Shown here piece by piece: positions 24,584-44,100 of a stretch of DNA of 64,000 nt. Each line of letters starts with the position of its first letter. Within the stretch, counting starts at the first letter, position 1. The notes under the pieces are model-generated. The model was not told the DNA's origin, did not search any database, and saw only the letters and a list, made by a program, of their open reading frames with translations. This DNA comes from Methanobacteriota archaeon (lineage in GTDB: Archaea; Thermoplasmatota; Thermoplasmata; SG8-5; JAGLSY01). Location: assembly GCA_020696385.1 (NCBI GenBank), contig JAEHCQ010000005.1, positions 122,658 to 186,657 on the forward strand. The letters are read 5' to 3'. Made by a program: the position numbers and the translations under genes.

Positions 24584-26860
24584 GTGGTAGCGCGTATGCA
24601 GGATGAACTTCATATAGGTGAATTCGACAATAATCCCTTCACAATAGAGGGCGGTAAATTCCTTACTGGCCGAACCGCGGTCATGGGGATGAGCGGCTCT
24701 GGCAAGAGTTATCTCATCGGAGTTCTGTGCGAGGAGCTTTGCAAGGCGGACCTTCCCTTCATCATTATCGATCCAGAGGGAGAATACAAGAGCCTGAAAG
24801 AGAAGTTCGATATTGTCTGGGCCTGTAATGACCCGGAAGCTGATGTGCTTCTCAATTTCCAAATATGCGAGAAGCTGGCAGAGGTCGCCGTCAATAAGAA
24901 CCTCCAGCTTATTTTTGACACATCCGAGTCGAGTAATGAGTTCGACCTTGTGGAAGAATTCCTCAAACATTTTTACATTATCGAGGACAAGGTAAGAAAA
25001 CCCATGCTTCTAATAATGGAAGAAGCAGACAGGTTCGCTCCCCAGAGCAAGGGCGATAGGATCGACGAGCTGATGGAAATAAGCAGGCGCGGTAGAAAGC
25101 GAGGCATCGGCCTTGTGATCGCCACCCAGAGACCTGCGATGGTGGACAAGAATATCTTATCCCAGTGCGGAAACCAGTTCATCGGCAGGCTGAGAACGGA
25201 GAATGACCTGAATGCGGTCAGCCTCTTCTTCAGGTCAAAGTCCACACTCAATACAATTCCAGATCTGGAAGACGGCCATTTCTACTCAATGGGCGATATT
25301 TCTTCCACCATCCAGAACGTGCATATCAGAACAAGGGAGACCACACACGGTGGCGGAACTCCCGGAAGAGCCAGCAGTAAAAAGAATGAACTGAAAGACC
25401 TGAAAATATTCCAGGACAAGCCGATGGTGATGCCATCGACACCATCACCGCCAATAGCTGGATCTCCTAATCTCGTGATCGAGGATGTTTTCCTCATCTA
25501 CAATGATGGAAGATTGATCAATCATCAAACTCGTAGGCTCAAGCCGGATGTGGACAATGAGATACTGAGCAGTATGTTCACGGCAGTCCAGAGCTTTATC
25601 AAGGATTCTTTTGGAAGTGGTGGCAGGACGAAGGTTCTCGAGCGTCTGGACTTTGGAGACAATTCGGTATTCATCGAGCATGGTGAGAATTGTTATCTCG
25701 CCATGGCCGCGATGGACATTGGGGAGGAGGTACTGCAGGAGCAGCTCAAATGCGCCAGCAGGGACATATCCAGAGAATATTCCGCCCCCTTGCGAAAGTG
25801 GAACGGGGACTTCGATGAATTCGCTGGTGTGGAATCTTATATCCAGAAGCTTCTGGCAGGAGAATACAAAAAAGGATGTATGCTCATCAATCCTTCGAAG
25901 GCTGCATCAACCGGATCAGAGATCTCGGCTTCAGACATGAAATCCAAAACCGAGCCAGTGGTGGAGAAAGCAGATGAAATATCTGATACAATTCAAGATC
26001 CGGGAAGCAAGCCAGCTCCCTCGATCATTAATAATATTAGCAGTAGTAATAACAATAAAGGAAGAGATAAAATGGAAATAGATCATTTTGTGTGGTATCC
26101 TATCCACGGAAAGGGGTACCAGGATAAGCCAGTAGCGATATCGGGGGATTTCAATCCAGGATTGTTCACCAATGTGTTCAAGAAGGAGTTCGCTCCGCTT
26201 ATGATGAGTTACAGTCAGAAGGATTATCGTGGCTTCATGCTCTTTGACAAGCCCAATATACGCCATGTTCTCTTCTCCTTCATCTACCACAAGGTCATCG
26301 ACGAATACGGTAGAAAAGGGGTGATCCATCATTCTGCCATCATTGACAGAAAGGATCTGCAGAGCGGTAAAGTTTCCTTATTCGACATCGAAGAGGCTAT
26401 GAACAAGTTCGACGAGGCAAACCCCGCGCCAAAGGGAGACATACCGCCTTTGGAAGTTCCAGCCTATGAGCCTGGGCAATACAGATACCAGGACAAGATA
26501 TTCAAGTACATTTCAAAGGCTGCTGTCGAAATACTGGCAACCAGGATGATGACCGCCAGCCGTAACCGAACATCATTCAGATGCCAGGGCGCGGGCACGA
26601 AGGCCAGGAAGAATATCGCATTATATCTGGTCGAACTGCTGGGCTTCAGGGGTGGAATACCGATCTCATTCACGACAGAGAGACCGATATCGGCTGAATA
26701 TTACGGCTTCTTCAATCTCGCGGTTACCGAGCGCGCGATAGCACCAGATGCGAATGCCGAGGACTGGGCAGTGATCAACTGGGATGAATTGAATGTCGGC
26801 ATGCCCAGGGTGGGCGGCAAAGAGGAAGTTTACAAATTAATTGATGATGCCTTCTCCTGA
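24584..26860 (+). CDS. HerA/FtsK-like (DUF87) ATPase fused to a roadblock/longin-like domain and an unknown C-terminal domain
   Basis: GMSGSGKS, IIDPEGEY, EEADRFAP, RGRKRGIGLVIATQRPA; then IEDVFLIYNDGRLI...MFTAVQSFIKDSF; then a ~260-aa domain from M at 26071. Start may be ATG 24596. Confidence 0.75.
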   Translation: MVARMQDELHIGEFDNNPFTIEGGKFLTGRTAVMGMSGSGKSYLIGVLCEELCKADLPFIIIDPEGEYKSLKEKFDIVWACNDPEADVLLNFQICEKLAEVAVNKNLQLIFDTSESSNEFDLVEEFLKHFYIIEDKVRKPMLLIMEEADRFAPQSKGDRIDELMEISRRGRKRGIGLVIATQRPAMVDKNILSQCGNQFIGRLRTENDLNAVSLFFRSKSTLNTIPDLEDGHFYSMGDISSTIQNVHIRTRETTHGGGTPGRASSKKNELKDLKIFQDKPMVMPSTPSPPIAGSPNLVIEDVFLIYNDGRLINHQTRRLKPDVDNEILSSMFTAVQSFIKDSFGSGGRTKVLERLDFGDNSVFIEHGENCYLAMAAMDIGEEVLQEQLKCASRDISREYSAPLRKWNGDFDEFAGVESYIQKLLAGEYKKGCMLINPSKAASTGSEISASDMKSKTEPVVEKADEISDTIQDPGSKPAPSIINNISSSNNNKGRDKMEIDHFVWYPIHGKGYQDKPVAISGDFNPGLFTNVFKKEFAPLMMSYSQKDYRGFMLFDKPNIRHVLFSFIYHKVIDEYGRKGVIHHSAIIDRKDLQSGKVSLFDIEEAMNKFDEANPAPKGDIPPLEVPAYEPGQYRYQDKIFKYISKAAVEILATRMMTASRNRTSFRCQGAGTKARKNIALYLVELLGFRGGIPISFTTERPISAEYYGFFNLAVTERAIAPDANAEDWAVINWDELNVGMPRVGGKEEVYKLIDDAFS

Positions 26861-27199: not shown

Positions 27200-27225
27200 T
27201 CGATAAACATATGTCTAGCTGAGCA

Positions 27226-28722
27226 TCATTTCACAACTTGGAACTTGTAAACAGGATCCCCATCCAGTTCTTCCGCATTCTGTACTATCTCCGGAAGGTC
27301 ATACAGTTTCCTGTTCTCATTGTAGATTTTGAGAAGCGGCTCCCAGTATCTGATCGAATCCTGATACATGATCACATCATCATGCTTGAGTATCTGGCAT
27401 ATTGAGAAAAGACCACCGGGATATGTCCTGATGACATCGATGATCCTCTGATTCTCATTGTACCATCTGTAGAATTTATTGCCTTTATTCCACTTCATGA
27501 TGAATTTTGTAAGATTGTTCCGGACATCTTCATCATTGGCGATCCAGACCATGACCTTGACTATGTCATTGTCCGCCAAGAGGTCGATCTTCTTCACCAG
27601 CGGCCCGTAATCCTTATTGTCCCAGTCATTGAAGATATCCTTCCACCCTTCAATGTTATCCGGGGCCTGGATACCATGCTCGGCGATAAAAGCAGCTTCC
27701 TCCGCTTGCTTCTTCGCCTCCTCGTCCATCTTCTTCTTTTCCTCAAGCTCCAGGATACGGAGTTTCTCTTCCTCGACCTTTCTCTTCTCCTCTTCGATCT
27801 TCATCTGAGCCTCTTCTTCCTTCCTGGCCAACTCCTTCTGCTCCATCTCAAGCCTCACTTGCTCCTTCCTCTCGGCGATCTTCAGGGCTTCCATCTCCAT
27901 GGCCTGCCGTTTTTCCGCGGCAGCCTTGGCCTGGATCTCGATCTTGCGCCTTTCCTCTTCCTTGATCCTGAGGTGATGCTCCATCTTCAGGCGCTCTTCT
28001 TCTTTCGCCTTCAGAAGGCGACCGGCTTTGGCAGCGTCAGCCCGGCTTTTTTCGTATTCGATCTTCGCCCTGGCTTCCTCGCCCTTCTGGAGCTTCATCT
28101 TCATCTTAGCAGTGTGTGCTTCCTGCTTTTTCAGCTTGGCCGCGCTTTCATTCCTGAGCCTTTCCTCGACCAGAACCTGCGCCTGAAGCTGGGCTTTCAA
28201 TCTTTCCTCTTCCATGAGCTTGGCCTTCAGCTCATGTTGGGCGCGTAGGTCTTCCTGCTTTTCCATGTCCAGCTCTTTTTTCAGGCGGATCTCCTCGGCC
28301 ATCTTGAGCTCATGTTCTTTTCTCAATGCCTCGGCCTCTTCCTTCTCCTTGGCCCAGCGTGCGTCCCGCCTCTCTATCTTTTTCTTCAGATTGGTGATGT
28401 CGCGCTTGGCATCGCTCAGTTTGTCTGGGTCTTGTAATTTGTAATCAATTGCATAAAAATCAGATTCCAGGGTGCGGATATCCAGTGCCCGGAGCTTCGT
28501 GCGCTGGGTGTTTATCTCCAAAAGGGCTTTCTCAAAACTTGCAAAGGCCTCCTCCACATCGGAAATTTTGCCATCATCTATGATCTTCGACAGACAGTTA
28601 ACTACAAAACCCTGCTTTTTCCAGAATTCCAGCTTCACCCTGAAGCCATCCCTGGCCTCCATGTCCTCACGCTCTGTTGTTCTATTCTCCGCAACCCGAT
28701 CGATTATTGATTTGGCACACAT
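27226..28722 (-). CDS. Long coiled-coil protein with globular termini
   Basis: About 230 aa E/K/R/A-rich helix; N-terminal LEFWKKQGF motif; GGTGA RBS before ATG 28722. Confidence 0.75.
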   Translation of the reverse strand: MCAKSIIDRVAENRTTEREDMEARDGFRVKLEFWKKQGFVVNCLSKIIDDGKISDVEEAFASFEKALLEINTQRTKLRALDIRTLESDFYAIDYKLQDPDKLSDAKRDITNLKKKIERRDARWAKEKEEAEALRKEHELKMAEEIRLKKELDMEKQEDLRAQHELKAKLMEEERLKAQLQAQVLVEERLRNESAAKLKKQEAHTAKMKMKLQKGEEARAKIEYEKSRADAAKAGRLLKAKEEERLKMEHHLRIKEEERRKIEIQAKAAAEKRQAMEMEALKIAERKEQVRLEMEQKELARKEEEAQMKIEEEKRKVEEEKLRILELEEKKKMDEEAKKQAEEAAFIAEHGIQAPDNIEGWKDIFNDWDNKDYGPLVKKIDLLADNDIVKVMVWIANDEDVRNNLTKFIMKWNKGNKFYRWYNENQRIIDVIRTYPGGLFSICQILKHDDVIMYQDSIRYWEPLLKIYNENRKLYDLPEIVQNAEELDGDPVYKFQVVK

Positions 28723-28834
28723 TTCAATCACCAGTCCCCACTTTCTTGAAAACTAGAATGAAATGTTGATGTATTAAGTTTTGCTCTTACTCTTGCTCTT
28801 GCAAAGGTTATTACGTGCATAAGGACATCCTGCT

Positions 28835-29329
28835 TTGAACAATATGCTTCCCGAATGGCTGATCCTGGATCTTACGCAAAATCAACTGTATGGCCTTGTC
28901 TTTCTTATAGGCTCTTTCACAGTGGCCACCCTGAGCGATCTGAAGTACATGAAAGCACAATCGGAATTCGTCGAGATCTGGGTGCTGGCCTTCATTGTTT
29001 TTCTGGTTATCGACATCTGGAAATGGGATTCGCTGGATCAGACCCAGACCATGATAAAATGGGCTATTATTTTCATATTCATGCTCCTTTCCCATCATTC
29101 GATCGGGGTCATATTCAAACTGGCTAGGGGAGATGTATTCGCATGTGCGGCGGTCATGGCACTCATGTCACCAGCTTTGATAGTCGTCTTCATCATAATT
29201 CTAAAAGTATCCGACCTATTGTTCAGGCCCATTCTGAGAAAGTTCGGGAGCGGCAATGCCTACCCCTTCATGCCCATTGTCATGTGTGGGACATTGGCGA
29301 TAATGGGAATTGGACTGTATCTGGCGTAG
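28835..29329 (+). CDS. Minimal A24-family (prepilin/class III signal peptidase-like) membrane protein
   Basis: About 6 TM helices; first Asp motif LSDLK, second motif LARGD (GxGD-like), C-terminal YPFMP. Confidence 0.6.
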   Translation: MNNMLPEWLILDLTQNQLYGLVFLIGSFTVATLSDLKYMKAQSEFVEIWVLAFIVFLVIDIWKWDSLDQTQTMIKWAIIFIFMLLSHHSIGVIFKLARGDVFACAAVMALMSPALIVVFIIILKVSDLLFRPILRKFGSGNAYPFMPIVMCGTLAIMGIGLYLA

Positions 29330-29416
29330 ACAGATACTGGCTAACACTAATTCTAATACAAATCGAGCAATTTGTTGATAGGAGTGAGAGTTATCGCATT
29401 ATCTATCAGAGAGCAT

Positions 29417-31291
29417 TCAGAGAGCATTCCCACAGCTTGGGCAGGCTTTCCAGCCAGGCTGTGTCTCGGACCCACAATGTGGACAAGATGGTTTGCTGGA
29501 CAGGGAACCTCCGCAAGCCGGGCAAGCTTTCCAGCCCGGCTGGGTGTCAGCCATACAGCTTGGGCACTTATTGCCGCTCTGTTGCTGCTGAGCCGGCTGC
29601 ACGCCTTGCTTGGATTGATCCACTGTGATGACATTAACTGGCTGCTGGCCAACTCCATATCCTCCGCCCCCCACATATTGTGGTACATTCTGTTTGGATG
29701 ATTCCATCATCTTCGCAGCCTGGCCAGTCATATCCACCTGATGATTTCTCTCGCGGTCCTCCGCGTCGCGGTAGGTGCTGATATTGTGCTTCTGACCCTC
29801 CGAGCGCATGAATTCCTCGGATGCCTCGCCTCCAACTGTTCCCAGCTGTCGCTTGGTAGCTTCCTGCTGTAGGGACTGCATCTGGATGGTCTTCTGATCG
29901 TACATTTTCTGAAGTATCTCCAATTTTTCAGTTGGAGCATCGATGATCTTCATCTCCAGTTCGTGGATATCCGTTTGTAGCTGAGATATCTGGGCGTCAG
30001 CTGTCGTGACACCCATCTGCTGGGTATCCACATCCATCTTCTTCATGTCCTCGACATGATCCTGCTCCTGAGCCTCCCTCATTCGCTTCGCTTCTTGAAC
30101 CTGAGCAAATGCGTCCATGGCTATCTGAGCCTCGCCTTTTTCCTTGTCGATATCAGCCTGATTCTGCGCCCTCTGGATATCCACATCGGTCATTCCAGCA
30201 TCGCGTTGCTGGCGTATGTTCTCATCATGAGCCATACCGGACATGTCACGATCATGCGTCTGGGCCATACTGTCCCTCTCCAGGGATGATGTCAATTGCA
30301 TGGATGCCAGGCGATCGGCTCCCGCTTGCCCTCCGAAGGCAAGCGCCCATTCCTTCTCATTACTTGTCTTGTCAACTTCATAATCGCGATTCAGGATATT
30401 GATGCTGGCCTTCATGTCAAAGTCCTTGTCGAACTCCGCTTGTTCGAAGATCTGCGTCTGTTTCTTCTTGTGGGCTGCGAGTGCGTCACTGGCTGTCCTG
30501 TCAAAGACCATGTATAACTTGAGTAAGTTCAATCCCCACATTTCCATGGTCTTTCTTAGCTCGACCTCGGCCGTGGTCTCGATCTGCTTGATGAGATCCA
30601 GGTTCCCCTTGATATCACTGGCTTCAACCGCTGACAATTGTGGTGTGAGAACGCCTACCAGTGCCTCATCGTTTATCAATTCCTCAAGATCGGATTTGAA
30701 AAGGAACTTGCCAACTGCCATATCTGTCCTGTTCTGGAATGTGAGCTTCTTGAGTATGCCGCCAGTGAAGATATTCCTGTTCCTACCCCACCATGTGCTG
30801 TGCTTCTCATTCTGTGTTGGCTGGTATGGTTCGGCAGACCTCATCAGATTTATGATCCTGGTGACATTGTTCTGGTTTATCTGGACACGCATGGTGCAGG
30901 TTCCCTTGACCTCTTCATTATCGCGTGAAAGTATACCTTGAACTTCCCATTCTGGCTGACCGTTCTGATCGACCTCGGGTTTTCCAGAAGGATCGAGCTT
31001 CCACATGCTCTTTCCGATCTGAAGGTTCATATCCATTGGAACCGTTGAAACAAATAGAAGTTGAACGGATTCTCCTCCGCCCATCTTGGACCTGAACCAG
31101 TCGATGACCCCTTGCCTTGATACTTCCAGCTTGGTCTGTGTGAGAACATCCTCGATCTTGCCGTTCCTGATGTACATCACGGCTTCTCCAGGACCTACTA
31201 TTGCTTCCTTTAAGAAATTCGGTATCTGGTCTCTGTCCACTAATTGAGCGATTACTTCTTCGCCATCTATGTTATTCCACATTTGTATCAT
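29417..31291 (-). CDS. SPFH (band 7/YdjI-like) domain + long coiled coil + two CxxC...CxxC zinc ribbons
   Basis: IVGPGEAVMYIRNGKI, MWGLNL; A/E/Q-rich coil; duplicated C-terminal CPxC..TQPGWKACPxCG; TAATG overlap with upstream gene. Confidence 0.75.
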   Translation of the reverse strand: MIQMWNNIDGEEVIAQLVDRDQIPNFLKEAIVGPGEAVMYIRNGKIEDVLTQTKLEVSRQGVIDWFRSKMGGGESVQLLFVSTVPMDMNLQIGKSMWKLDPSGKPEVDQNGQPEWEVQGILSRDNEEVKGTCTMRVQINQNNVTRIINLMRSAEPYQPTQNEKHSTWWGRNRNIFTGGILKKLTFQNRTDMAVGKFLFKSDLEELINDEALVGVLTPQLSAVEASDIKGNLDLIKQIETTAEVELRKTMEMWGLNLLKLYMVFDRTASDALAAHKKKQTQIFEQAEFDKDFDMKASINILNRDYEVDKTSNEKEWALAFGGQAGADRLASMQLTSSLERDSMAQTHDRDMSGMAHDENIRQQRDAGMTDVDIQRAQNQADIDKEKGEAQIAMDAFAQVQEAKRMREAQEQDHVEDMKKMDVDTQQMGVTTADAQISQLQTDIHELEMKIIDAPTEKLEILQKMYDQKTIQMQSLQQEATKRQLGTVGGEASEEFMRSEGQKHNISTYRDAEDRERNHQVDMTGQAAKMMESSKQNVPQYVGGGGYGVGQQPVNVITVDQSKQGVQPAQQQQSGNKCPSCMADTQPGWKACPACGGSLSSKPSCPHCGSETQPGWKACPSCGNAL

Positions 31292-31809
31292 TATTTCCAC
31301 CCCCTCAAGAAATCTTCCCTATCCTTGTAAGAATTCCTTGAACCGGTAATATACTGGCGAAGGCTTCTGAGTTCCTTCACGGCATCAATTTCATCGCCAT
31401 TCATTATCATTCCCTCGATAACTCCCGTGGCTTCGGTGACATTGACGATATTTTCCAAAATGTTGAGATCGAACTCCACCAGGGTCTTGAGATCACCTTC
31501 ACCTGGCGATCTTGATTTGTTAGTTGAAAAGAAACTGTACTGATGGCCAACCACGGACATTGTGATATCATTGGAGAAGATATCCAGCTCGTCCTTGACC
31601 TTTTTAAGTGAGTTTATGGAGTCCGTATCCTTCTTGTCATAGAGTATGTCCAGGATATTCCGCGTATTCTTCACGGACTTGTCGATCTCGGCCATCAACT
31701 TCTTTCTGACCAGATTGTCATCCTCTTTTACCTTATCCTTTCTGTATCCCGTGTACCCGGACACCATTTTGCAAACAGAAGTTATCGCAGTGATCAGAAC
31801 CATATTCAT
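31291..31809 (-). CDS. Conserved helical hypothetical protein, translationally coupled to the SPFH gene
   Basis: GYTGY...DDNLVR, YSFF, LVEFD; GGGGAG RBS. Confidence 0.7.
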   Translation of the reverse strand: MNMVLITAITSVCKMVSGYTGYRKDKVKEDDNLVRKKLMAEIDKSVKNTRNILDILYDKKDTDSINSLKKVKDELDIFSNDITMSVVGHQYSFFSTNKSRSPGEGDLKTLVEFDLNILENIVNVTEATGVIEGMIMNGDEIDAVKELRSLRQYITGSRNSYKDREDFLRGWK

Positions 31810-31866
31810 ACTCCCCTGTGTTCTTATGTATTGAAAGGTTATTTAAGTTAATAAGGGTTTCGGGAT
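31810..31866. promoter_or_regulatory. Probable bidirectional BRE/TATA promoter
   Basis: 57-bp divergent gap containing GAAAGG-TTATTTAA, read as TTAAATAA on the other strand. Confidence 0.5.
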
Positions 31867-33756
31867 ATGGAGGTTGAATACTTGATCCATAAAGGGTTCG
31901 GAAGGACAAGAGCCATTGTCATATTATGCATGACCTTTCTTTTATTCAGTGGTCTCTCTCCACTTATGATACATAATGCCAGTGCCAATACAGTCTCTGG
32001 TTACATATACCCGGATGAATACGTGATCTATTACATCGATGTCGATTCCTATACATATATCGACATCTCGGTAAGCTGGTATGACAGCTCCAATGATATC
32101 GATCTCTACCTCTACGACGAGTCTTCCACATTGGTTGACGATAGTGAACTTACAAGTACAAACACCGAGTCCATATACTACTATCCATCAAGCACTGGCT
32201 CTTACGCCCTTTACATATATGGATACAGTATCTCCGGCAGTGAATATTATACCCTTTACTGTAACTTCTATGCCTCCCTGAGCACGGTGGACGATACACC
32301 AACGACCACGGATGACAGCTACGAGCCAGATGATTCATATTCGTCCGCATCGTACATATCAGATGGCAGTGTCCAATCACATAGTATTCTGGATGGTGGG
32401 CTGGATGTCGATTGGGTGACCTTCACCATATACGAGACCAGTGATGTGGTCATTGAAACATCAGGTTCAAGCGGCGATACCCAGATATATCTGTACGATG
32501 ACTCGGGAGTGCCATCCGTCTACTCCGATGTGAATGATGATGGAGGAACTGGCTCCTTTTCAAGAATCAGCAAGAATTTCCTGGCCTCGGGCACTTATTA
32601 TGTTAAGATAATAGAATATGGCCAGGATCAGGAAATATCATCATATAGTGTTGAATTTTCAGCCGAGCCCAGCCTCGATCTCGGTATTGGCGACATCGAG
32701 AACCTGGTCTATCTGGACTATATCTGCTTTTTCATATTCTTTATAATTTTCATAGTGATAGTTGCGGGAATAAGATCATCCCGCAAGAAGAAAAAGAAAA
32801 AGAAGCAAAGGAATCTGGAGCAACAGATCCAGTCCCAGCATTATCAATCTCAACAACAATACCAGCAGCAACAGTCTAGACAAGCTCAGCAATATGCTCC
32901 ACAGCAGGCTCCGCGTGTTCAGCAGCAACAAGTCAAACAGACTCAGCAGACCCAGGGGGTTCAGCAGACCCAGCAGGTCCAGCAAACCCAGCAACCACAA
33001 TACCAGCAACAATACCGAACCCCAGTGCCAGCACCAGTAGTATCCACTCGGCAAGATACTGCTAAAGAAGATCGTTCAAGGCAAGAGGCGGAGCAGAGGC
33101 AGAGGGACGAGAGAGAAAGGAAGGAGAGGTTCGAAGCTGACAAACGAGTGAGGGAAGAGAATGAGAGAAAAGCCAGGGAGGAAAAAGGACGCCTGGCTCG
33201 GATCGAGGAAGAGAAACAGAGATCAAGAAGCTATGACACACCTCAGGCCGAGATGGACAGGCGAGCTACACAATACGAATCCATGGCCAGTATGCAGGAG
33301 AAGGAAAGCGAGAACATCCACGCGATGCTGCATACCAGTGAGGAATATGGAAGGCCATTACCTCCACCGCCACCACTTGATATGCCTCCGGCAGATGATC
33401 TCCATTCCCAGCCGAGCGAGAAGATGACCAAAGCTCTGGAAGATTCATGCAAGCTCATCATGCCAACATATCTTGAGCCGGATACCACATCCGAGATAAT
33501 CATAGACATTGAGAATGATTCTGGAATGAACCTGGGCAATGTCACTGTCGACCTCTCTGATCTGCAGAAATATTTCGAAATTCAGGATAAGATAGAATTC
33601 CCGGGTATTCGAAATGGCATGACCCTGAGAGAAGATGTCAAATTCAAACCCAAATACGATGAGGGATCCTTCCCCGTGGTGGTGTCCATAGTTTCAGAAG
33701 GTTCCACTGTGAAATTAAATTACACGATCAAGGTCGGAGGCACGGAGATATATTAG
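31867..33756 (+). CDS. Membrane protein: signal peptide, 2 extracellular PPC-like domains, TM, Gln-rich/coiled/poly-Pro linker, C-terminal beta-rich domain ending TIKVGGTEIY
   Basis: DIDLYLYD, DDSYEPDD, GDTQIYLYD (PPC-like); TM + RKKKKKKK; RPLPPPPPL. Confidence 0.8.
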   Translation: MEVEYLIHKGFGRTRAIVILCMTFLLFSGLSPLMIHNASANTVSGYIYPDEYVIYYIDVDSYTYIDISVSWYDSSNDIDLYLYDESSTLVDDSELTSTNTESIYYYPSSTGSYALYIYGYSISGSEYYTLYCNFYASLSTVDDTPTTTDDSYEPDDSYSSASYISDGSVQSHSILDGGLDVDWVTFTIYETSDVVIETSGSSGDTQIYLYDDSGVPSVYSDVNDDGGTGSFSRISKNFLASGTYYVKIIEYGQDQEISSYSVEFSAEPSLDLGIGDIENLVYLDYICFFIFFIIFIVIVAGIRSSRKKKKKKKQRNLEQQIQSQHYQSQQQYQQQQSRQAQQYAPQQAPRVQQQQVKQTQQTQGVQQTQQVQQTQQPQYQQQYRTPVPAPVVSTRQDTAKEDRSRQEAEQRQRDERERKERFEADKRVREENERKAREEKGRLARIEEEKQRSRSYDTPQAEMDRRATQYESMASMQEKESENIHAMLHTSEEYGRPLPPPPPLDMPPADDLHSQPSEKMTKALEDSCKLIMPTYLEPDTTSEIIIDIENDSGMNLGNVTVDLSDLQKYFEIQDKIEFPGIRNGMTLREDVKFKPKYDEGSFPVVVSIVSEGSTVKLNYTIKVGGTEIY

Positions 33757-33784
33757 GCTGGATGGCCTTTGAGATGGTGATACA

Positions 33785-34603
33785 ATGAAAGTCGCGTTTA
33801 GATCAGATGTCGGAAAACTAATGCAGATCAATGAGGATATTGCAGGATGGGTGACCTTGAGGACATCCGGGATGTCAGAGATGTTGAATACCCCTGGTAC
33901 CTCTGAAATGTCTGTGATATCAAAAATATCACAGCAACCAGGCATTGATCGAATTGATATTCTTTTCGTATCGGATGGAATGGGCGGCCATAAGAAAGGA
34001 GATGTGGCAAGCAGGATAGCCACCCAATACCTGACATACCTCGTCCAGAACGCCATATCCCGATCAGAGGGCGACATAGTTCAGGAGCTGGTCGTGAAAC
34101 TGCCTGGCTACATGAAGAACATAAACACTCATTTGAGATCCCAGGCAAGCGGCAATCCAGACCTAAGTGGAATGGGATGCACGCTCACTGCCGCCATAAT
34201 GATCGGAAACAGCATGGTGATAGTCCATGCTGGTGATAGCCGGCTTTACCACATAGCTGACGGGCGATTGCGCCAGGTGACAAAGGACCATTCTTTTGTT
34301 CAAGAGCTTCTTGATAAAGGTGAGATACAGCCAGATGAGGCTTTTGACCATCCAAAAAAGAATAAAATTCATACCGCCCTCGGCCCCAAGGATGACATAA
34401 ATGCTGATGCCTTTGTCGAGGTCTGGGAAAGTGGTACATTACTCTTCTGTACTGATGGCCTGAATGACATGCTGAGAGATCACGAGATACTGGATATCGT
34501 GAATGCCAATCCAGATCCCGAAGATATGTGCGAGAAATTGGTCGAGGCGGCTCTTGAAAAGGGCGGGCATGATAATGTCAGTGTGTTGGTTGCCAGTAAA
34601 TGA
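33785..34603 (+). CDS. PP2C/PPM-family Ser/Thr protein phosphatase
   Basis: NED, SDGMGGH, GMGCTL, HAGDSRLY, TKDHS, CTDGL, GGHDNVS. Confidence 0.95.
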   Translation: MKVAFRSDVGKLMQINEDIAGWVTLRTSGMSEMLNTPGTSEMSVISKISQQPGIDRIDILFVSDGMGGHKKGDVASRIATQYLTYLVQNAISRSEGDIVQELVVKLPGYMKNINTHLRSQASGNPDLSGMGCTLTAAIMIGNSMVIVHAGDSRLYHIADGRLRQVTKDHSFVQELLDKGEIQPDEAFDHPKKNKIHTALGPKDDINADAFVEVWESGTLLFCTDGLNDMLRDHEILDIVNANPDPEDMCEKLVEAALEKGGHDNVSVLVASK

Positions 34604-34635
34604 TCGGATCTGAAATTTGAGGAGATGGTAAAATT

Positions 34636-35283
34636 ATAACAGACTGGATATTCGACAATGTTTTCCTTTTCATATTCTTATTCTTCTTTTTATTCTTCGC
34701 CATGGCCTATGTCATGTACTACATATTCGTGAAGAAGAACCCCGCGCTTGAACACCTGGGTGTCGGCAAACAGATGGACAATATCCTCAAGCCCACACAG
34801 CAACAACAGCAACATCAACAGCAGCATCCGAATTATCAGACACAACCACAACATCAAGCATACCCTGGCTCTGCACCACCTGTGAGCCAGGGGCAGCGCG
34901 TGCAACCGCAACAACAGCGACCAGCTCCCTCACCCCCTGGAGAGGGGATGTCCAGTATCAACCTGAAAGATCATTATTCGATCCAATTACCGCATTTTAT
35001 CAATTCTGGCATGACTGAATCGGTCATAGTCACCCTGTATAACAATACCAGCACGGAAATAGATGACATAAGTATCGATCTTTCAGACATGACGGATTAC
35101 TTCGATATCGAGGGAGAGGTGAAAGACTATCGATTGAAACCAGGAGCCGAGATCGTCAAGACCCTGAGGATTAGGCCAAAATTTGAAGAAGGTGTGTTCC
35201 CATTCAAGATAAAAATAAGTACTGGTTCGATCTATGTAGAAGACGAGCACTCGATCAAGGTCGGGGGCACGGAGATCTATTGA
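34636..35283 (+). CDS. Membrane-anchored Gln/Pro-rich protein with C-terminal domain ending SIKVGGTEIY
   Basis: The frame is open upstream of ATG 34702 and encodes the rest of the TM helix (VFLFIFLFFFLFFA). Probable non-canonical start at ATA 34636. Confidence 0.75.
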   Translation: MTDWIFDNVFLFIFLFFFLFFAMAYVMYYIFVKKNPALEHLGVGKQMDNILKPTQQQQQHQQQHPNYQTQPQHQAYPGSAPPVSQGQRVQPQQQRPAPSPPGEGMSSINLKDHYSIQLPHFINSGMTESVIVTLYNNTSTEIDDISIDLSDMTDYFDIEGEVKDYRLKPGAEIVKTLRIRPKFEEGVFPFKIKISTGSIYVEDEHSIKVGGTEIY

Positions 35284-35292
35284 GGTAGGAAA

Positions 35293-36153
35293 ATGAGCAA
35301 TCAAAAAGAATTCACAGGAAGTTGGATACTATTGGTCCTATTGTTCATCATATTCTTTCCACTTGGGATTATCTATTTCTTTGTCATGTTGAAAGATAGA
35401 GGTTCAGCCTATGCTCCTCCATATTATCAGACAGTCCAGACCAATCAGACAAGAAATGCATATGCACCACCTCAATATCAGCCGAGTACCCAGCAACCAC
35501 CAGCACAGTATTCTGGACAGAGCACCCAGAGACCATCCGGTCAAAATACCAATCAGACAAGAAGTGCACAACAGGGTCAGTATTCACAGCCCTCACAATC
35601 ATCACAGCCAGCCCAGAATGTGCCTCAGTACGAACAGCCAGCTCAATACAGCCAGCCACAGTACAAAGCTCCACAATACAATTCACCTCAGCAAACGAAT
35701 CAAATGCAAAAACCACCAGCCTACACAACATCGCAGACAACAAGCCAGAGCCCACCAAATGTGGCTAGAGCTCCTGCGGCCCAGCAGGCTCCAATAGCAG
35801 TAAGGCCTCAGAAAATCATGTCCGAGGGCGATATCAGCTCCCTTTACAGTCTCCAGGTTCCCAGCTTCATGGATCCTGACATGACGGAAGAGATCATGAT
35901 CAGGCTGAACAATGACTCTGGCGATGATATCGAGAACATGCACATAGATTTCTCGGATCTCAGAAGCTTTTTCGACATAGATGAGGATGTCAATATCCCC
36001 TACTTTGGAGATGGTGTCGTACTGGAGAGAAGGGTGAATATCAAGTCGAAGGAAAGCTCTGGCAGCTTTCCCGTTAGAGTGAAAATATCCGCGAATGGAA
36101 AGACAGTCACGGAGAGGTTCACTATCAAAGTTGGTGGAACCGAGATATATTAA
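35293..36153 (+). CDS. Membrane-anchored Gln/Pro/Tyr-rich protein with C-terminal domain ending TIKVGGTEIY
   Basis: N-terminal WILLVLLFIIFFPLGIIYFFV, ~140-aa low-complexity linker, paralogous C-terminal domain; GAGGTA RBS. Confidence 0.8.
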   Translation: MSNQKEFTGSWILLVLLFIIFFPLGIIYFFVMLKDRGSAYAPPYYQTVQTNQTRNAYAPPQYQPSTQQPPAQYSGQSTQRPSGQNTNQTRSAQQGQYSQPSQSSQPAQNVPQYEQPAQYSQPQYKAPQYNSPQQTNQMQKPPAYTTSQTTSQSPPNVARAPAAQQAPIAVRPQKIMSEGDISSLYSLQVPSFMDPDMTEEIMIRLNNDSGDDIENMHIDFSDLRSFFDIDEDVNIPYFGDGVVLERRVNIKSKESSGSFPVRVKISANGKTVTERFTIKVGGTEIY

Positions 36154-36196
36154 GTAAGCAATTCCCGATTTTGTCAAGACTAATTAATAGATTACG

Positions 36197-38620
36197 TCAC
36201 TTATTCGTGTTGAAGGCGACTCCATCCTGCAAATTGATGTCACCGCCGCCTTCCCCAATGTTCGACTTGTAGATCACACTGTCCTTAATATCGACATTGT
36301 AGGTGACCTGGGTCACCAGCATCGCCTTTTCCAGCCGGATCGCTCTGTCAATAGATTCAAACTGTCCCTGCAGGAATTTTTCTGCAATATCCGGGTCTAT
36401 GGAATAACCATCGAATCTGAACTCGATGGTGCCATCCTCTTTTCTCCAACCACCGCATAACATCAGGAAACTGAGCGGACTCTTCGTGGGCTTTCCAGCG
36501 TATAGAAGCTGGAAACTGTTCACGTCCTCGTACTTGCCCACGCAATGGAGATTGCTGCAAGCATCGGATAATCGAGATCTGGCCTTCTCTATCGTGATAT
36601 CACTGTACATGATCTGACGCGATGCCCTTGGCAAAGTCTTGATGGACATCATGAATTCATGCTCTCTCATCTCCAGTGGCTCGATGAGCGGCATGATGTT
36701 TCCAGTGTCCACCACGGGCGCGTTTATGCGCCTTTTCTTGCCCATGTGATCGTGATATGAAATGTCAAAGTGTATCTTGGCCTTCATCGCTCTCTTGGCC
36801 TTCATGATGAAGGTTATTGCCTGCGATTCATTGGAACCCAGGTATGGAATATCCCGGACTCGCGAATCTGGCTGTAATAATTCCAGGCCTTCGGGTATGT
36901 CCAGTGTGATAGATACCCGATTGTGAGTGTATGGAGATACGTTATTCAGCTTAAGCTGAACATTGATCTTATCACCATCAATGGTCCTGTCAACCTCGGC
37001 ATCCAGACCTCCTGAACTGGGTCTGAAGCTCTCGCCGTATCTGAAGTACAGGTCCTCGTCACGGACCAGTCTTCCGCCAACTCTGACTTTCATCGGAACC
37101 GTGAAGTCCCCGCCAGAGCCTGCATCCTTCAGGGTCATCTTTCTTTCATGGTATCTTTCCTGACCTGGCATCAGATCGTATTTGAGGTTCAAATCCTTAT
37201 CACAGGTGAATAATTCACCCGCGCCCACGTAATCGACAACGATATTCTTCCATGGAAGATCCGAATTGTTCTTCACTGTCGATCGGAGATCAAGCTGATT
37301 GCCATTCCAGTCCCATGATGTGGTGATCTCCAGATCATTGATCTCCTCATAAAATTCCTGTATCTTGTTCTTGTCGCTGATGAATTCAAGGTGAATGTAA
37401 GGCTCTCTGGGCTTATCCGGATTATAGACCAGCCAGATATCGTCCCCGTCCTGAAGTTTTTTGAATTTACCGGAAATTACACGAGCCTTGTTCAGGAAAG
37501 TTCCATTGTGACTGTCGCAATCGGTTATCACCCAGTCCCCGCTTCCCGCGGCATTCATGATCTCCGCGTGTTTCGGGCTGGACACGTATTTCGCAGGCAG
37601 GTATACATCATTCTGCGGTGACTTGCCGATCCTGTTCTTCGATTTTTCCAGAAAGAACACCGTCCCGGGCTTCACACTAGGGTCCTGGCTGTTTATCACT
37701 TTGATGAGCGGTTTGAATCGAATTATATCCTCGATACCGGACAGCGTGACCTCCACATCCCTCAATCTGAATCTCAATTGAGGGTGGCGCTGGGTACTCC
37801 CCTGTATCAGGTTGCTGAATATACTAGCTCTGCGAAGACTGAGATAATCCTTGTCATTTGCCAGGAATGGTGGGGATGAGCTGGATAGGAGGAAATACAA
37901 TGTCGCGCCCAATGAGAAGATATCATTGGCCTTCGTGGGCTTTGTCCTCGCCATGACTTTTCCGGGCGGAGGTGGGGGAGGGAAATTATGGTTATTGTTG
38001 CTATGTCCAGGAGGTGGTGGTGGGAATCTGGAATTGTTATTGTGATTATTGTGACCACCATTCTGTGAAAGCTCTGGTGGTGTGTATGAGCCATGGGACA
38101 CATTGGCAGTCACGAGCTCATCATGATGGACATTATAGGCAGTTCCGAAGTCAATGAGAATGGGTACCTTGTTCGGGCCCAGCAGGATATTTTTTGGGCA
38201 AATATCCCTGTGGATTATTCCCTCACCATGCATGTATGATATGACATCGCACAGTCTTTTCAAAATGTCCAGGGCTTCCTCATTGGTCGCTTTACAGCAA
38301 TCATACACCTCTGCCAGGCTCTTTCCCTCGACATAATTCATCACAAGACCATTGCTCTTGTGAATGTACTCCACGAACTTCACGATCTGGGGATGATCCA
38401 GCATGGCCATGACATTGGCTTCCTGCCTGATGGAATCACAATATAGATCATACTTATGCTTGACATCATGCTTTGGGAGTTTCAGGACCAGCTTATCATC
38501 ACTGCCCACGGCCTTGACAACATATAGTATGCTCATGCCGCCGCGACCCAGCTCGCGCTCGACCACGTATCTTTCCTCTACGATGTCGCCTTTGGACAGA
38601 ACTCTCGAACCATATAGCAC
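36197..38620 (-). CDS. Hanks-type Ser/Thr protein kinase + FHA + two beta-sandwich domains + alpha/beta platform-like domain
   Basis: LGRGGMS, VLK, HRDICPKN, DFG, YTPPE, DIFSLG; FHA IGKS...VSSPKHA...DCDSHNGTFLN. Confidence 0.9.
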   Translation of the reverse strand: MLYGSRVLSKGDIVEERYVVERELGRGGMSILYVVKAVGSDDKLVLKLPKHDVKHKYDLYCDSIRQEANVMAMLDHPQIVKFVEYIHKSNGLVMNYVEGKSLAEVYDCCKATNEEALDILKRLCDVISYMHGEGIIHRDICPKNILLGPNKVPILIDFGTAYNVHHDELVTANVSHGSYTPPELSQNGGHNNHNNNSRFPPPPPGHSNNNHNFPPPPPPGKVMARTKPTKANDIFSLGATLYFLLSSSSPPFLANDKDYLSLRRASIFSNLIQGSTQRHPQLRFRLRDVEVTLSGIEDIIRFKPLIKVINSQDPSVKPGTVFFLEKSKNRIGKSPQNDVYLPAKYVSSPKHAEIMNAAGSGDWVITDCDSHNGTFLNKARVISGKFKKLQDGDDIWLVYNPDKPREPYIHLEFISDKNKIQEFYEEINDLEITTSWDWNGNQLDLRSTVKNNSDLPWKNIVVDYVGAGELFTCDKDLNLKYDLMPGQERYHERKMTLKDAGSGGDFTVPMKVRVGGRLVRDEDLYFRYGESFRPSSGGLDAEVDRTIDGDKINVQLKLNNVSPYTHNRVSITLDIPEGLELLQPDSRVRDIPYLGSNESQAITFIMKAKRAMKAKIHFDISYHDHMGKKRRINAPVVDTGNIMPLIEPLEMREHEFMMSIKTLPRASRQIMYSDITIEKARSRLSDACSNLHCVGKYEDVNSFQLLYAGKPTKSPLSFLMLCGGWRKEDGTIEFRFDGYSIDPDIAEKFLQGQFESIDRAIRLEKAMLVTQVTYNVDIKDSVIYKSNIGEGGGDINLQDGVAFNTNK

Positions 38621-38735
38621 GATTACCAGTATATCGGATGATAATTAATAACTTACTGATAGACTTGACCACCGCCTCAGGACTAAATATCAAACATCAC
38701 AAAACAATAAGACATTGAAGGCCCATCAGCCTTCA

Positions 38736-40041: not shown

Positions 40042-40092
40042 ATGGATACCGTCACTATACTACTGATAGCCATAATCATCATGTTCTTCGGC
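40042..40092 (+). pseudogene. Duplicated 5' remnant of the tauE-like gene
   Basis: MDTVTILLIAIIIMFFG vs MEPVVILLIAIIIMFFA at 40224; similarity also visible in DNA. Confidence 0.65.
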
Positions 40093-40223
40093 GTTTTTTT
40101 CTTTTATCCCTCGCTGTGCTGGCCCACCTTCCAAAAGAAAAAAATGCGGTTAAATAAGAAAACTCAGGTAGGCCTGCTCGCTCGGCAGTTGATTTTTATC
40201 AAATGTAGACATTGGGAGGTCGC

Positions 40224-41172: not shown

Positions 41173-44100
41173 ATGGAGGAGAAAAGCATGAAAAGATCGA
41201 TTGCAATAATTTTAGCAATAATAATGACAGCTACTAGTATGATCGCGGCTACGAACGTAGTCTCTGCGAATACTGGCGATCCTGTTGAACTACCACCTGG
41301 CAGTGGATATTGGGAAACTGCCGGAGATTGGTTCGTGGATACGTCAACTTCGTTTAGCAATGTGGAAATATGGGTTCAGGGAGACCTGACTGTAAATGGG
41401 GCCTCTGCCTTATTGACCCTCACCAACTGCCTTATCACCATAGAAGGTGACCTGATAATTGAGAACGCGGGAACCCTGACACTCAGGGGCACCGAGGTTC
41501 GAATATTACAGCCTGGCCTTGTTGATGGTGTGTATAATATCTATGTCAGGACCGGTGGAGTCTTCACCGCAACAGACATTGACGGTATACCATCCACTGA
41601 TGATGGCTCACTCATCACTGCCGTAGGCACCACTTATGAATACGATTTCACTGTAGAGACCAATGCTGGTGCTTTCAGCCTTGTGAACTCCGAGATATCA
41701 CAGTGTGGATACAATGATGCAAATCCGGGTCTCACCATCGAGATCAATAATGTCTTGATGAGAGATTCACACATATTTGATTCATACAATGGTACGACCT
41801 TCGATGGTGCAACACTCACATCGATATATCTCAAGAACATGAAATATGAAGATAATGTCAATGGAGTGGCAGTGCATCATGGTGCTGTTGTCACATTTGA
41901 TGATTCCTGGTTGCACAGCTCTTCGACCTATGAGGTGGCTGTGATCGATTCAGATGTCTATATCTATGACACCACTATAGATTCAGATCATGACTCTGAG
42001 AGAGGAATTTGGCTATACAACAATGGAACTGCAAATATCTACAATTCAAGGATCATGGATGCCAATGATTACAATATATATGTGCAATATTACTCATACC
42101 TGAACATCCAGGACTCGAACGTATTCTCTGCATCAGATGATGGTATATACATCGACGATTGGTCAGACGCAGATATATCCAATAATGAAATATTCAGCAA
42201 TACAGATGCGAACATCTATCTGGATGATTTCTCAACTGCCGAGATCTTCAATAATGACCTATTCGCAAATGGCAATAGTGACGAAGGTGTTTGGGTAAAT
42301 GATGGTTCCTATGCCAACATATATAATAATAAGATATGGGACAATGGTGAAGAAGGTATTCAGGTAGAGGATGCAAATGCATCTATAACGAATAACTGGA
42401 TATACTCCAATAACTGGGATGGAATTTATCTCAATGATGCTGATGAATGTTATATTGCAGATAATGAGATAATTGAAAATGCCGCAAGCACAACTTATGC
42501 TGGTATTCAGGTCGATGGGGGTTCCATGTGGAATGATATAGAGAACAATCTCATCCAGGAATCTTACTACTACAATATACGCCTTGAGGGAAATTCCCAC
42601 AACAACACCTTCTCTGATAACATGATCTATGACATCACAAGTACTGGAAGCACATACGCTGGTGTGTACATTAATGGAGCAGGAACAAGGGACAATACCT
42701 TTGATTCCAATGCCATAAATATGAATTATTATGGTATCTATATGATCAATTCTCCATACAACTACTTTGTCGACAATAACATAGACCTCAATGATTACAG
42801 AGGTGTGTATCTGAACAATGCGGATTTCAACCTATTCGAGTACAATACGATCACAAGGAGTGGAAATGGTGGAGCCAACCACGGTCTTTACATAGAGCAG
42901 ACCTCTGGAGACAATGAATTCTATTACAACTCATTATCCAACAGGGTGAATATTCTTTGTAACAATGGAACTGTTGTGGACAATACCGAATTCGACTACA
43001 ACTACTATTCGGATTACACCGGATTCGACACTACAGCTGACTGGATAGGCGATACAGGAGACTATACAATTCCTGGAACAACAATGCATTACGACGCTCA
43101 CCCACAGACAAAGATCAGCCCCACTGGCGGCAATGCCACTACATATGCAAGTATCGGAACCTCATTGAATATCGACACTTCAAGGGACATACACCTGCCT
43201 GCTCAAACACCAAATGCAGGAAGCAGGACAATACCACAGGTCGGTATCTGGTATGAATACAACCTCTACATGAATGATGATGATAACCCGAATAATGACA
43301 ATGTCTACTTTCACGGCGATGGCCCAGATAGATCCTTCGTTGATGGATATCACGCTGGCAATGTCTTTGAGTTCGAGGATTGCGATTATATCAGATTCGA
43401 CAGCCTGAGCATTGACAATGGTAGTGGAGACGGTATCTACTGGGAATTCTACGAGGGCGAAGATGTTCAGATCTGGGATACAGATTATAACCTGAATCCA
43501 CAGATAGACATCACCAACTGTGAGTTCGAAAGCAGTGGAAGCGACGGTATCGAGATAGGGGAGTTCGATAATTATGGATTCCAGTACCTGTCAGATACAG
43601 GCGACGCATTCCAGCCAGTGAATGTCTTTGACCTATTGGGCAACCAGCACATATTCTGGGTAGACCCATGGGATGACAATGGTGCCCAGATATGGTACAT
43701 GATGACTGATCTGAATGGTAATGTCCTCATTAATGGAACAGCGATCACGCCTTACAACAATGATTATGACTTAAAGAGGCCGATCCCACTTGTGGACTCC
43801 CAGAACCATATAAATCTAGTATGGAAAGATGACAGGTTCACACACGAATCTATTGACACAGCACATGACCTGTTCTTCATGAGATTGAACCCATACCTGG
43901 ATGACCGTGATGGTAGCCCGGCAAACCCGGATGTGATCAAGGTCGTTTATGACACACAGATAATCACCTTCCCATTGGACGATGATGGATATATCAGCTA
44001 CGAGAACGAGCTGCAGATGGCCGGAGCGGACATTGACAGCGATGACAATATCCATTTGTTCTGGTGTGAAGAGGACATCGAGGATTGGTTATACTACAAT

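Follow-up and report, generated by a model that had tools for sequence, protein, structure and literature searches.

A terminal KVGGTEIY peptide on diverged archaeal Ig-like domains and its co-occurrence, within one genus, with a kinase-FHA and PP2C island

Why should three neighbouring archaeal genes with different N-terminal modules all end in the same nine residues, IKVGGTEIY, beside genes for a protein kinase and a phosphatase? This question is raised by a 64,000-nt stretch of DNA from a Methanobacteriota archaeon (GCA_020696385.1, JAEHCQ010000005.1, positions 122,658-186,657 of the forward strand), which is called the window here. An earlier note on the window had described the three gene products as membrane adaptors and had proposed that the Thr of their common tail is a phospho-switch, served by a Hanks kinase with an FHA domain and by a PP2C phosphatase encoded at the same locus. 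The analysis below places the tail in a wider protein family. The explanation that we tentatively favour is that the tail is an exposed docking motif, with phosphorylation as a regulatory overlay specific to this lineage.

The common ending of the three genes on a diverged domain of about 105 amino acids (aa) was confirmed. All three genes lie on the forward strand. Gene 1 (tail protein 1, 629 aa) occupies 31867-33756, with its immunoglobulin (Ig)-like domain at 33424-33753 and the tail at 33727-33753; gene 2 occupies 34633-35283 (domain 34951-35280, tail 35254-35280); and gene 3 (286 aa) occupies 35293-36153 (domain 35821-36150, tail 36124-36150). The open reading frames (ORFs) of genes 1 and 3 agree with the earlier calls, and the noncanonical start placed near 34636 for gene 2 (ATA, or ATT at 34633) is probably right. 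The first ATG of gene 2 is at 34702 and its frame is open from 34621; a noncanonical start is likely because a transmembrane (TM) helix is encoded in the open frame upstream of the ATG, and because the congeneric orthologue P0005 begins MIIDWIFDNVF. Compared with gene 3, the last 110 residues show 35% and 41% identity in genes 1 and 2; of the 24 invariant columns, nine are the final nine residues. The tail codons of the three paralogues differ synonymously at six of the nine positions and show no replacements, a pattern that speaks for selection acting on the peptide and against gene conversion.

A six-frame scan of the 2.28-Mb genome assembly (G000, 94.5% complete) for ORF-terminal GGTEIY returned only these three genes and one ORF of 48 aa. 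The latter lies outside the window on the reverse strand of another contig (C49, 18532-18678) and ends in GGTEIY followed by a stop codon. Its last 21 nt match the end of gene 2 at 20 of 21 positions, with an estimated chance expectation of about 1e-4. The neighbouring ORFs, as read from their translations, are Fic-like, DNA-methylase-like and peptidase-like, and blastn and tblastn searches gave no domain remnant upstream of the ORF.

A profile of the three window domains was searched against 1.84 billion representative proteins, and 104 proteins were obtained at E<=0.001, 69 of them at E<=1e-10. The canonical tail GGT[EDR][IV]Y-COOH was found in 62 of the 104 (exactly IKVGGTEIY in 54) and in 61 of the top 70 matches (P0001-P0070, the last of them at E 1.7e-10). 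A sister subfamily of five proteins ends in V[EK]G[KRM][DE][SA]Y, without the Thr; four proteins have variant or internal motifs (GGTEVF with an acidic extension, GGSEIAFPD and GGSEPLG), and the remaining 33 have no such tail. The 62 canonical representatives were defined by the motif itself, and the invariance of the Thr and the identity of the tail within this set carry that bias; the informative figure is consequently the contrast between tail and core, with a mean pairwise identity of 97% for the last nine residues versus 38% for the core domain. The three genes thus belong to a family that is covered by neither Pfam nor NCBIfam. No PDB sequence scored below E 0.5 against the domain profile, a homologous-protein search with the domain returned the query alone, and GGTEIY was not found in the literature searched. 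The protein clusters that were looked up had one to three members, with uninformative names except for labels describing N-terminal parts.

The N-terminal parts of the family vary widely. Among the 71 library representatives bearing any tail type (canonical, sister or variant), 15 carry HEAT repeats (HEAT_2) and five gave weak Adaptin_N matches (best E 6e-5). Arm, Kelch, TPR, LRR, FN3/beta-helix and Zn-ribbon modules also occur in the family, and one Woesearchaeota member has a bacterial PH domain (bPH_3) with a weak Vps36-GLUE match. In a crude hydropathy scan, a TM segment was absent from 48 of the 71 members. The term membrane adaptor therefore suits the three window genes but does not fit the family, and this counts against the phospho-adaptor scheme of the earlier note. 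In the window, gene 1 encodes a signal or TM segment, two PPC ectodomains (PF04151, E 2.5e-7, as called before), a TM segment, a poly-Lys stretch and a long linker rich in Gln/Pro and in Glu/Arg/Lys; gene 2 encodes one N-terminal TM segment and a Gln/Pro linker; and gene 3 encodes a 24-residue hydrophobic segment with a central Pro-Gly, followed by a Gln/Pro/Ser linker.

Tail genes tend to occur in tandem. On L005, a contig of a Woesearchaeota metagenome-assembled genome (MAG), a gene for a PH-like protein is followed by one for a HEAT protein, and on L007 (G001:C420, from a congeneric genome) a gene for a 4-TM protein is followed by one for a Laminin_G/FN3 receptor-like protein. In the genome G036, an EMC3/TMCO1-type (YidC/Oxa1-like) insertase encoded within a ribosomal-protein/SecY cluster (L022:7002-8153, G036:C304) is fused to the Ig domain. 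The motif of this fusion is internal and reads IKVGGTEVF, followed by GGEEEDDN, and the same ending is present in all three G036 copies.

Fusion of the Ig domain to Hanks kinases is recurrent. Ten of the 33 tail-less relatives were picked, and in six of them (P0075, P0080, P0090, P0100, P0103 and P0104) the matched domain lies directly N-terminal of a Pkinase domain, with WD40/PQQ propellers or TPRs further upstream. In other relatives (P0071, P0073, P0077, P0086, P0093, P0094 and P0096), the same Ig domain ends in a basic stretch and a ..[ST]LLDLLK-like peptide, and some of these proteins carry it behind PQQ-type propellers. An alternative C-terminal peptide on the same domain fits a model in which the Ig domain is combined with an exchangeable terminal motif.

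The family is rare and patchily distributed, with 7 of 41 relatives and 7 of 401 genomes of the class carrying it; in the class of the Woesearchaeota genome (G401), full-length members were found in 1 of 401 genomes. The carriers are uncultured Thermoplasmata, Woesearchaeota and unbinned metagenome contigs. A pattern scan for the tail in a species-level genome collection identified two genomes. Scans of metagenome contigs and viral contigs with query A1 gave no relatives, and a metagenome scan with P0106 gave matches only to its N-terminal beta-helix/FN3 part.

The AlphaFold2 (AF2) model of the gene 3 domain, calculated from a 34-row alignment, is an eight-strand Ig-like beta-sandwich with a mean predicted local distance difference test (pLDDT) value of 93.2. 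Its last strand spans residues 94-104 (..TIKV) and gives way to coil at residues 105-110 (GGTEIY). Since the last strand stops at ..IKV, GGTEIY is exposed in the model and is not a buried strand, a possibility that had been raised with the original proposal. A ubiquitin-like Gly-Gly precursor was considered and dropped, as the fold is an Ig sandwich. Fold searches with the tail domain returned many unrelated Ig-like matches (Foldseek E about 1e-4, VIA-align Z 8-10), including TRAP-beta, complement MG domains, glycosidase linker domains, the alpha-adaptin ear, PapD-like proteins, MSP and the ArnB sandwich. Because unrelated Ig-like folds score alike, the fold alone assigns no function. The language-model neighbours of the tail domain are archaeal CARDB/NPCBM_assoc clusters, with CARDB on 29-54% of their members; the three window proteins gave no PF07705 or PF10633 match at E<=0.1. 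Weak Pfam matches to AP3B1_C and Alpha_adaptinC2, below the Pfam cut-offs, also occur in the family. As for its location, the order of elements in gene 1 (a signal-like N-terminus, ectodomains, a TM segment and then poly-Lys) would place the Ig-like domain in the cytoplasm, and the soluble HEAT or Zn-ribbon members and the kinases point to the same side.

The three genes lie in an accessory island of nine genes (27206-38701, 11.5 kb) that behaves as a unit in DNA comparisons with the congeneric genomes G001 and G002. The island is present in G000 and in G001, in the latter with the whole stretch split over short contigs. It is missing in G002 (93% complete), which has flanks of 80-92% DNA identity and about 4 bp in place of the island (G002:C22 127744 joins 127749, corresponding to window 27205 joining 38702). 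Tail genes accompany the kinase-FHA gene in G000 and G001, whereas searches of G002 and of the likewise congeneric G003 found neither; the PP2C gene is missing in G002 together with the whole island. The PP2C-type Ser/Thr phosphatase gene (33785-34603, forward strand) stands among the tail genes, as noted earlier, and its product matches PF13672 (E 2.2e-13; 50.7 bits, cut-off 24) and PF00481 (44.1 bits, cut-off 20.3). The phosphatase is Stp1-like, scoring 219.5 bits with the Stp1/IreP-type NCBIfam equivalog, under its 230-bit cut-off. FHA and PP2C_2 matches are single in G000 and in G001, inside the island in both, the genome-wide PP2C search having been made with PF13672 (PP2C_2). Apart from the island kinase, Pkinase matched a single ORF of G000, 209 aa long, which we take to be Bud32-like from its size.

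The gene for the 807-aa kinase (36197-38620, reverse strand) converges on the tail genes, and both domains assigned to it by the earlier note were recovered: a Hanks kinase at about 37751-38569 (Pkinase, PF00069, E 9e-32, 110.9 bits, aa 18-190) with GRGGMS, LKLPK, HRD and DFG present, and an FHA domain at 37433-37633 (PF00498, E 1.1e-13, 51.8 bits versus a 20.7-bit cut-off, aa 330-396; 56.1 bits in the genome search). FHA domains bind phosphothreonine through the Arg of a G-R pair, the Ser of S-x-x-H and N-G-T. The island FHA keeps S-P-K-H (T-D-K-H in G001) and N-G-T, and the previously noted G-K in place of G-R was seen in both orthologues. The catalytic-loop Lys of Hanks kinases lies in HRDxKxxN. 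Six related archaeal kinases have HRD[LI]KPxN; the loop is HRDICPKN in G000 and HRDICPNN in the orthologue P0111. A tyrosine-kinase-like loop, with Lys at +4 of HRDICPKN, was dropped because the orthologue has Asn there.

The C-terminal half of the kinase comprises a first Ig-like domain (about 37037-37333), a second Ig-like domain with an alpha/beta platform (about 36314-37015), and a low-confidence tail with the motif 'DIKDSVIYKSNIG'. The suggestion that the kinase contains a divergent copy of the tail domain is moderately supported. The domain profile matched aa ~448-522 weakly (E 0.028 in a whole-genome search, E 3e-4 in a small set), and hhalign aligned domain and kinase over 87 columns (probability 58%, E 1e-4). 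The AF2 model of aa 420-807, based on a 4-row alignment, contains two sandwiches, an alpha/beta domain and a disordered end, with a mean pLDDT of 67.7; the island kinase may thus hold one or two copies of the domain. In this model of moderate confidence, the C-terminal half appears to resemble an adaptin/COPI appendage. The second sandwich and the alpha/beta domain together (aa 536-763) align with whole appendages (Foldseek E 2e-8 to 8e-7), giving Z 13.0 over 219 residues with COPI, Z 10.6 with gamma-COP, Z 11.2-11.9 with alpha-adaptin and Z 11.7-11.8 with beta2-adaptin (both adaptins over 204-206 residues); BBS9 also matches. Alpha_adaptinC2 scored 20.4 bits on the kinase versus a cut-off of 27.6, and a homologous-protein search with the C-terminal half returned only the query and its orthologue.

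According to the explanation that we favour, the membrane-anchored proteins would present a constant cytoplasmic Ig-like sandwich of the adaptin-ear/CARDB kind, followed by the exposed KVGGTEIY. This peptide would serve as a short linear docking motif that ties varied N-terminal modules (ectodomain receptors, HEAT trunks, PH-like, LRR, Kelch and Zn-ribbon modules, and a YidC/EMC3-like insertase) to one conserved putative partner. In this genus, the motif proteins would have been acquired or kept together in the 11.5-kb island with the kinase-FHA protein, the PP2C phosphatase and an SPFH-like protein. The kinase and the phosphatase would most plausibly control the switch of the tail, or of the long disordered linkers, from the bound to the unbound state and back, and pThr-Glu-Ile-Tyr-COOH would be a reasonable FHA ligand. 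Few C-terminal peptides in these data are conserved as strongly as the one that marks this family, and it is found on dozens of unrelated sensor and scaffold modules. Short terminal motifs usually point to one conserved binding machine, and KVGGTEIY is therefore a ready-made bait for its partner. The island, for its part, supplies a compact set of candidate writer, reader and eraser proteins.

Several points weigh against this explanation. Outside the genus no gene consistently adjoins the tail genes, and the genomes with canonical or near-canonical tails are few (G000, G001, G036 and G401). The single Ig domain of the tail-domain model matches many unrelated Ig-like folds equally (Z 8-10). 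The kinase model is of moderate confidence, with a root-mean-square deviation of 6-8 Å from the appendages, and a profile of the appendage half found nothing convincing in G401, G036, G017, G021 and G010, the one match there (E 4e-4) falling on another part of the model. Judged by their residues, the FHA domain has Lys where the phosphate-binding Arg usually sits and both kinase orthologues have Cys in place of the catalytic-loop Lys, so the activity of the kinase is only a predicted one.

The strongest competitor is the phospho-switch itself as the core function of the tail, in which the Hanks kinase phosphorylates the Thr, its own FHA domain reads the pThr with Tyr at +3, the PP2C phosphatase erases the mark, and several receptors feed one kinase/phosphatase pair. 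Several observations favour this proposal. The Thr is invariant in the 62 canonical tails and replaced by Ser in GGSEIAFPD and GGSEPLG, the tail is an exposed coil, the sole FHA match of G000 and of G001 is in the kinase gene, the sole PP2C_2 match stands among the tail genes, and kinase-FHA and tail genes are jointly present in G000 and G001 and jointly not found in G002 and G003. The FHA domain also retains S/T-x-x-H and NGT, and two further G001 tail genes outside the island could be clients in trans. However, searches by tblastn with all island proteins found homologues of the kinase and the PP2C phosphatase only on the island contigs of G001, and no such homologue was present in the flanks of eight non-island tail loci (from G001, G036, G017, G021, G010 and the Woesearchaeota MAG, on contigs of 2.3-34.8 kb). 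No FHA match was found in G036, G017, G021, G010, G018 and G401, all of which carry tail or near-tail proteins, and no PP2C_2 match in G036, G017 and G021, the three of these searched for it; with a completeness of 59-92% for those that have a stated value, one island could readily escape notice in such genomes. G036 gave no Pkinase match either. G401 has exact IKVGGTEIY tails, yet its 307-aa kinase lacks the domain. Moreover, the sister subfamily V[EK]G[KRM][DE][SA]Y lacks the Thr, the FHA domain and the catalytic loop carry the substitutions described above, and the invariance of the upstream K, V, G and G would be unaccounted for if pT-x-x-Y alone mattered. The phospho-switch is thus plausible in this genus but fails to explain the conservation of the tail across the family, and we consider it rather unlikely to be the core function.

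Alternatively, GGTEIY might add a strand to, or cap, another Ig domain or the copy in the kinase, giving oligomers, with phosphorylation acting elsewhere, such as on the linkers. Several paralogues per genome (three in G000, five matches in G001, three in G036 and two in G401), often encoded in tandem as in window genes 2-3, L005 and L007, would suit such self-association, as would the tail-less domain copies in kinases. The AF2 sandwich, however, is complete and has no missing strand, and a tail and its groove could co-vary between lineages, yet the tail is nearly invariant; we regard self-association as improbable. It is very improbable that the tail is a processing or modification signal (cleavage after Gly-Gly, or a change to the terminal Tyr or carboxylate), for which the invariant Gly-Gly followed by four residues and the terminal Tyr common to the canonical and V[EK]G..Y subfamilies would speak, since the motif of G036 is internal and reads GGTEVF with an acidic extension, so that neither a free Tyr carboxylate nor a Tyr hydroxyl is required there, the fold is not a ubiquitin-like beta-grasp, and no protease or ligase gene is linked.

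The remaining island genes lie upstream of gene 1. The first (27226-28731, reverse strand) encodes a Glu/Lys-rich coiled-coil protein of 501 aa with an N-terminal 'WKKQGF' domain, a globular C-terminal domain and no Pfam family. Its relatives at E 1e-14 are in G023 and G066, and a class-wide search with its N-terminus gave convincing matches only in G001, G023 and G066; the other matches were mostly weak, look like coiled-coil composition and were set aside. The second (28835-29329, forward strand) encodes a polytopic membrane protein of 164 aa with no Pfam family, and its assignment as a prepilin peptidase was dropped because no family matched. The third (29417-31300, reverse strand) encodes a 627-aa protein with an SPFH/Band-7-like N-terminal part, a coiled coil and a C-terminal double zinc ribbon (DZR, PF12773, E 6.6e-9). 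The SPFH/Band-7 likeness is a lead only. For aa 1-330, the nearest Atlas cluster (0.93) is unnamed and the second-nearest is 'SPFH/Band 7' (0.92, 179 shared features, Band_7 on 41% of its members), and the Pfam and NCBIfam scans gave no Band_7 match. The fourth (31291-31809, reverse strand) encodes a helical protein of 172 aa with no assigned family; it adjoins gene 1 in G001 too, where an orthologue of 77% identity lies beside the gene-1 orthologue on L006. PADLOC recognised no defence system, its matches being limited to generic kinase and PP2C ones.

A related gene set was observed in G023:C87 (L045, L046). Two proteins of the sandwich-sandwich-alpha/beta type end there in 'IKDS[IV]V.RS', as the kinase does, and next to them are encoded a homologue of the island's 501-aa protein and a protein with multiple zinc ribbons that carries 'DIKDSVI...GGGDINIKDS'. 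No kinase was found in this module, and G023 gave no match to the tail family. Outside the island, the window contains a second indel relative to G002 (25913-26842, about 930 bp) inside a 758-aa ORF (24584-26860), and a dispersed repeat of about 90 bp (40086-40200). This repeat, which is not a tRNA, has 21 blastn matches in G000 at 72-93% identity, besides the copy in the window, and many more in G001-G003. The forward-strand gene at 41173-47865 encodes a secreted-type protein of 2230 aa which, from its translation, has beta-helix-like repeats and an Asp-rich DxDGDG run, followed by a TM segment and a Lys/Glu/Pro tail.

The closest described gene sets are the adaptin/SPFH/kinase/phosphatase loci that accompany euryarchaeal endosomal sorting complex required for transport (ESCRT) genes (Makarova et al. 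2024, PMC11188069). In the available part of that article, these loci are described with kinases bearing adaptin-type Ig repeats, phosphatases, FHA proteins, appendage-like Ig+TBP proteins and an SPFH/coiled-coil/zinc-ribbon protein. The island and its family share with them Ig-like domains of the adaptin-ear type that adjoin Hanks kinases or are fused to them, a phosphatase encoded at the same locus, an FHA domain as the proposed reader of phosphorylated cargo, and WD40/PQQ propellers fused to Ig domains; a protein with coiled-coil and zinc-ribbon parts is also common to both, its SPFH part in the island being a lead only (PMC11188069). The earlier statement that no such archaeal architecture has been described therefore has to be narrowed: loci combining kinase, Ig, phosphatase and FHA genes are on record, and it is the KVGGTEIY tail and its family that are not mentioned in that part of the source (PMC11188069). 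Unlike in the loci so described, the FHA domain is here fused to the kinase and the appendage-like region, and neither Vps4 nor ESCRT-III was found in G000. The search for Vps4 gave two Vps4_C (PF09336) matches at E 0.06, both sub-threshold, with the control above the cut-off in three archaea. Snf7 (PF03357) gave no match at E<=0.1, but the sensitivity of this search is poor because its control never passed the cut-off in any genome. The published link between adaptin-ear-like domains and archaeal Ser/Thr phosphorylation is thereby widened to include a lineage for which the searches returned no ESCRT core, a point of interest for the pre-eukaryotic origin of motif-to-ear recognition.

The closest characterised mechanism is that of ArnA, ArnB, ArnC and PP2A in Sulfolobus (PMC12852372). 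There, according to the available text, the FHA protein ArnA binds phospho-threonines in the C-terminal part of its beta-sandwich partner ArnB, with ArnC as the kinase and PP2A as the phosphatase, much as the phospho-switch proposal would have it (PMC12852372). Fold searches with the tail domain also return ArnB and its paralogue (Z 8.9-9.0), at scores that many other folds equal. ArnB differs in that it is a vWA protein whose several pThr sites lie within a helical bundle and do not form a single terminal motif. ArnA carries a zinc finger and lacks a kinase, PP2A takes the place of PP2C, and no family with exchangeable N-termini is described in that part of the source (PMC12852372).

The eukaryotic adaptin and COPI large subunits, built of a HEAT trunk, a hinge and an ear, offer a further likeness. 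The commonest family architecture (15 of 71) is a HEAT region, a low-complexity linker and a C-terminal Ig-like domain; the kinase C-terminal half aligns with whole ears in the model, and the weak Adaptin_N, AP3B1_C and Alpha_adaptinC2 matches point in the same direction. Against this likeness, every sequence match stays under the Pfam cut-off, the tail-bearing domain is a sandwich without a platform, ears bind motifs whereas the tail domain carries one, and no coat or small-GTPase partners were seen. It is quite a long shot that an archaeal sorting or scaffolding system, organised like adaptor coats and working without Vps4 or ESCRT-III, has the KVGGTEIY family as its clients. In such a system, HEAT-trunk/hinge/ear proteins and single-pass receptors alike would present the one invariant terminal peptide on an ear-like domain, and in some lineages a kinase-FHA-appendage fusion and a PP2C phosphatase would write, read and erase a phosphate there. 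If true, prokaryotes would have a phosphorylation-gated equivalent of the motif-to-ear recognition of eukaryotic vesicle traffic.

Bacterial Hanks kinase, FHA and PP2C modules are represented by PknB, FhaA/FhaB and PstP, and by OdhI/GarA. As in these modules, the kinase, FHA and PP2C functions are encoded together in the island, and the NCBIfam matches of its FHA domain (FhaB/FipA, E 1.1e-9; OdhI, E 1.2e-6) and of its phosphatase (Stp1/IreP) are to such proteins, all under the equivalog cut-offs. Unlike in the bacterial modules, the FHA domain is fused to the kinase itself, and the candidate targets form a paralogous family with an identical terminal peptide.

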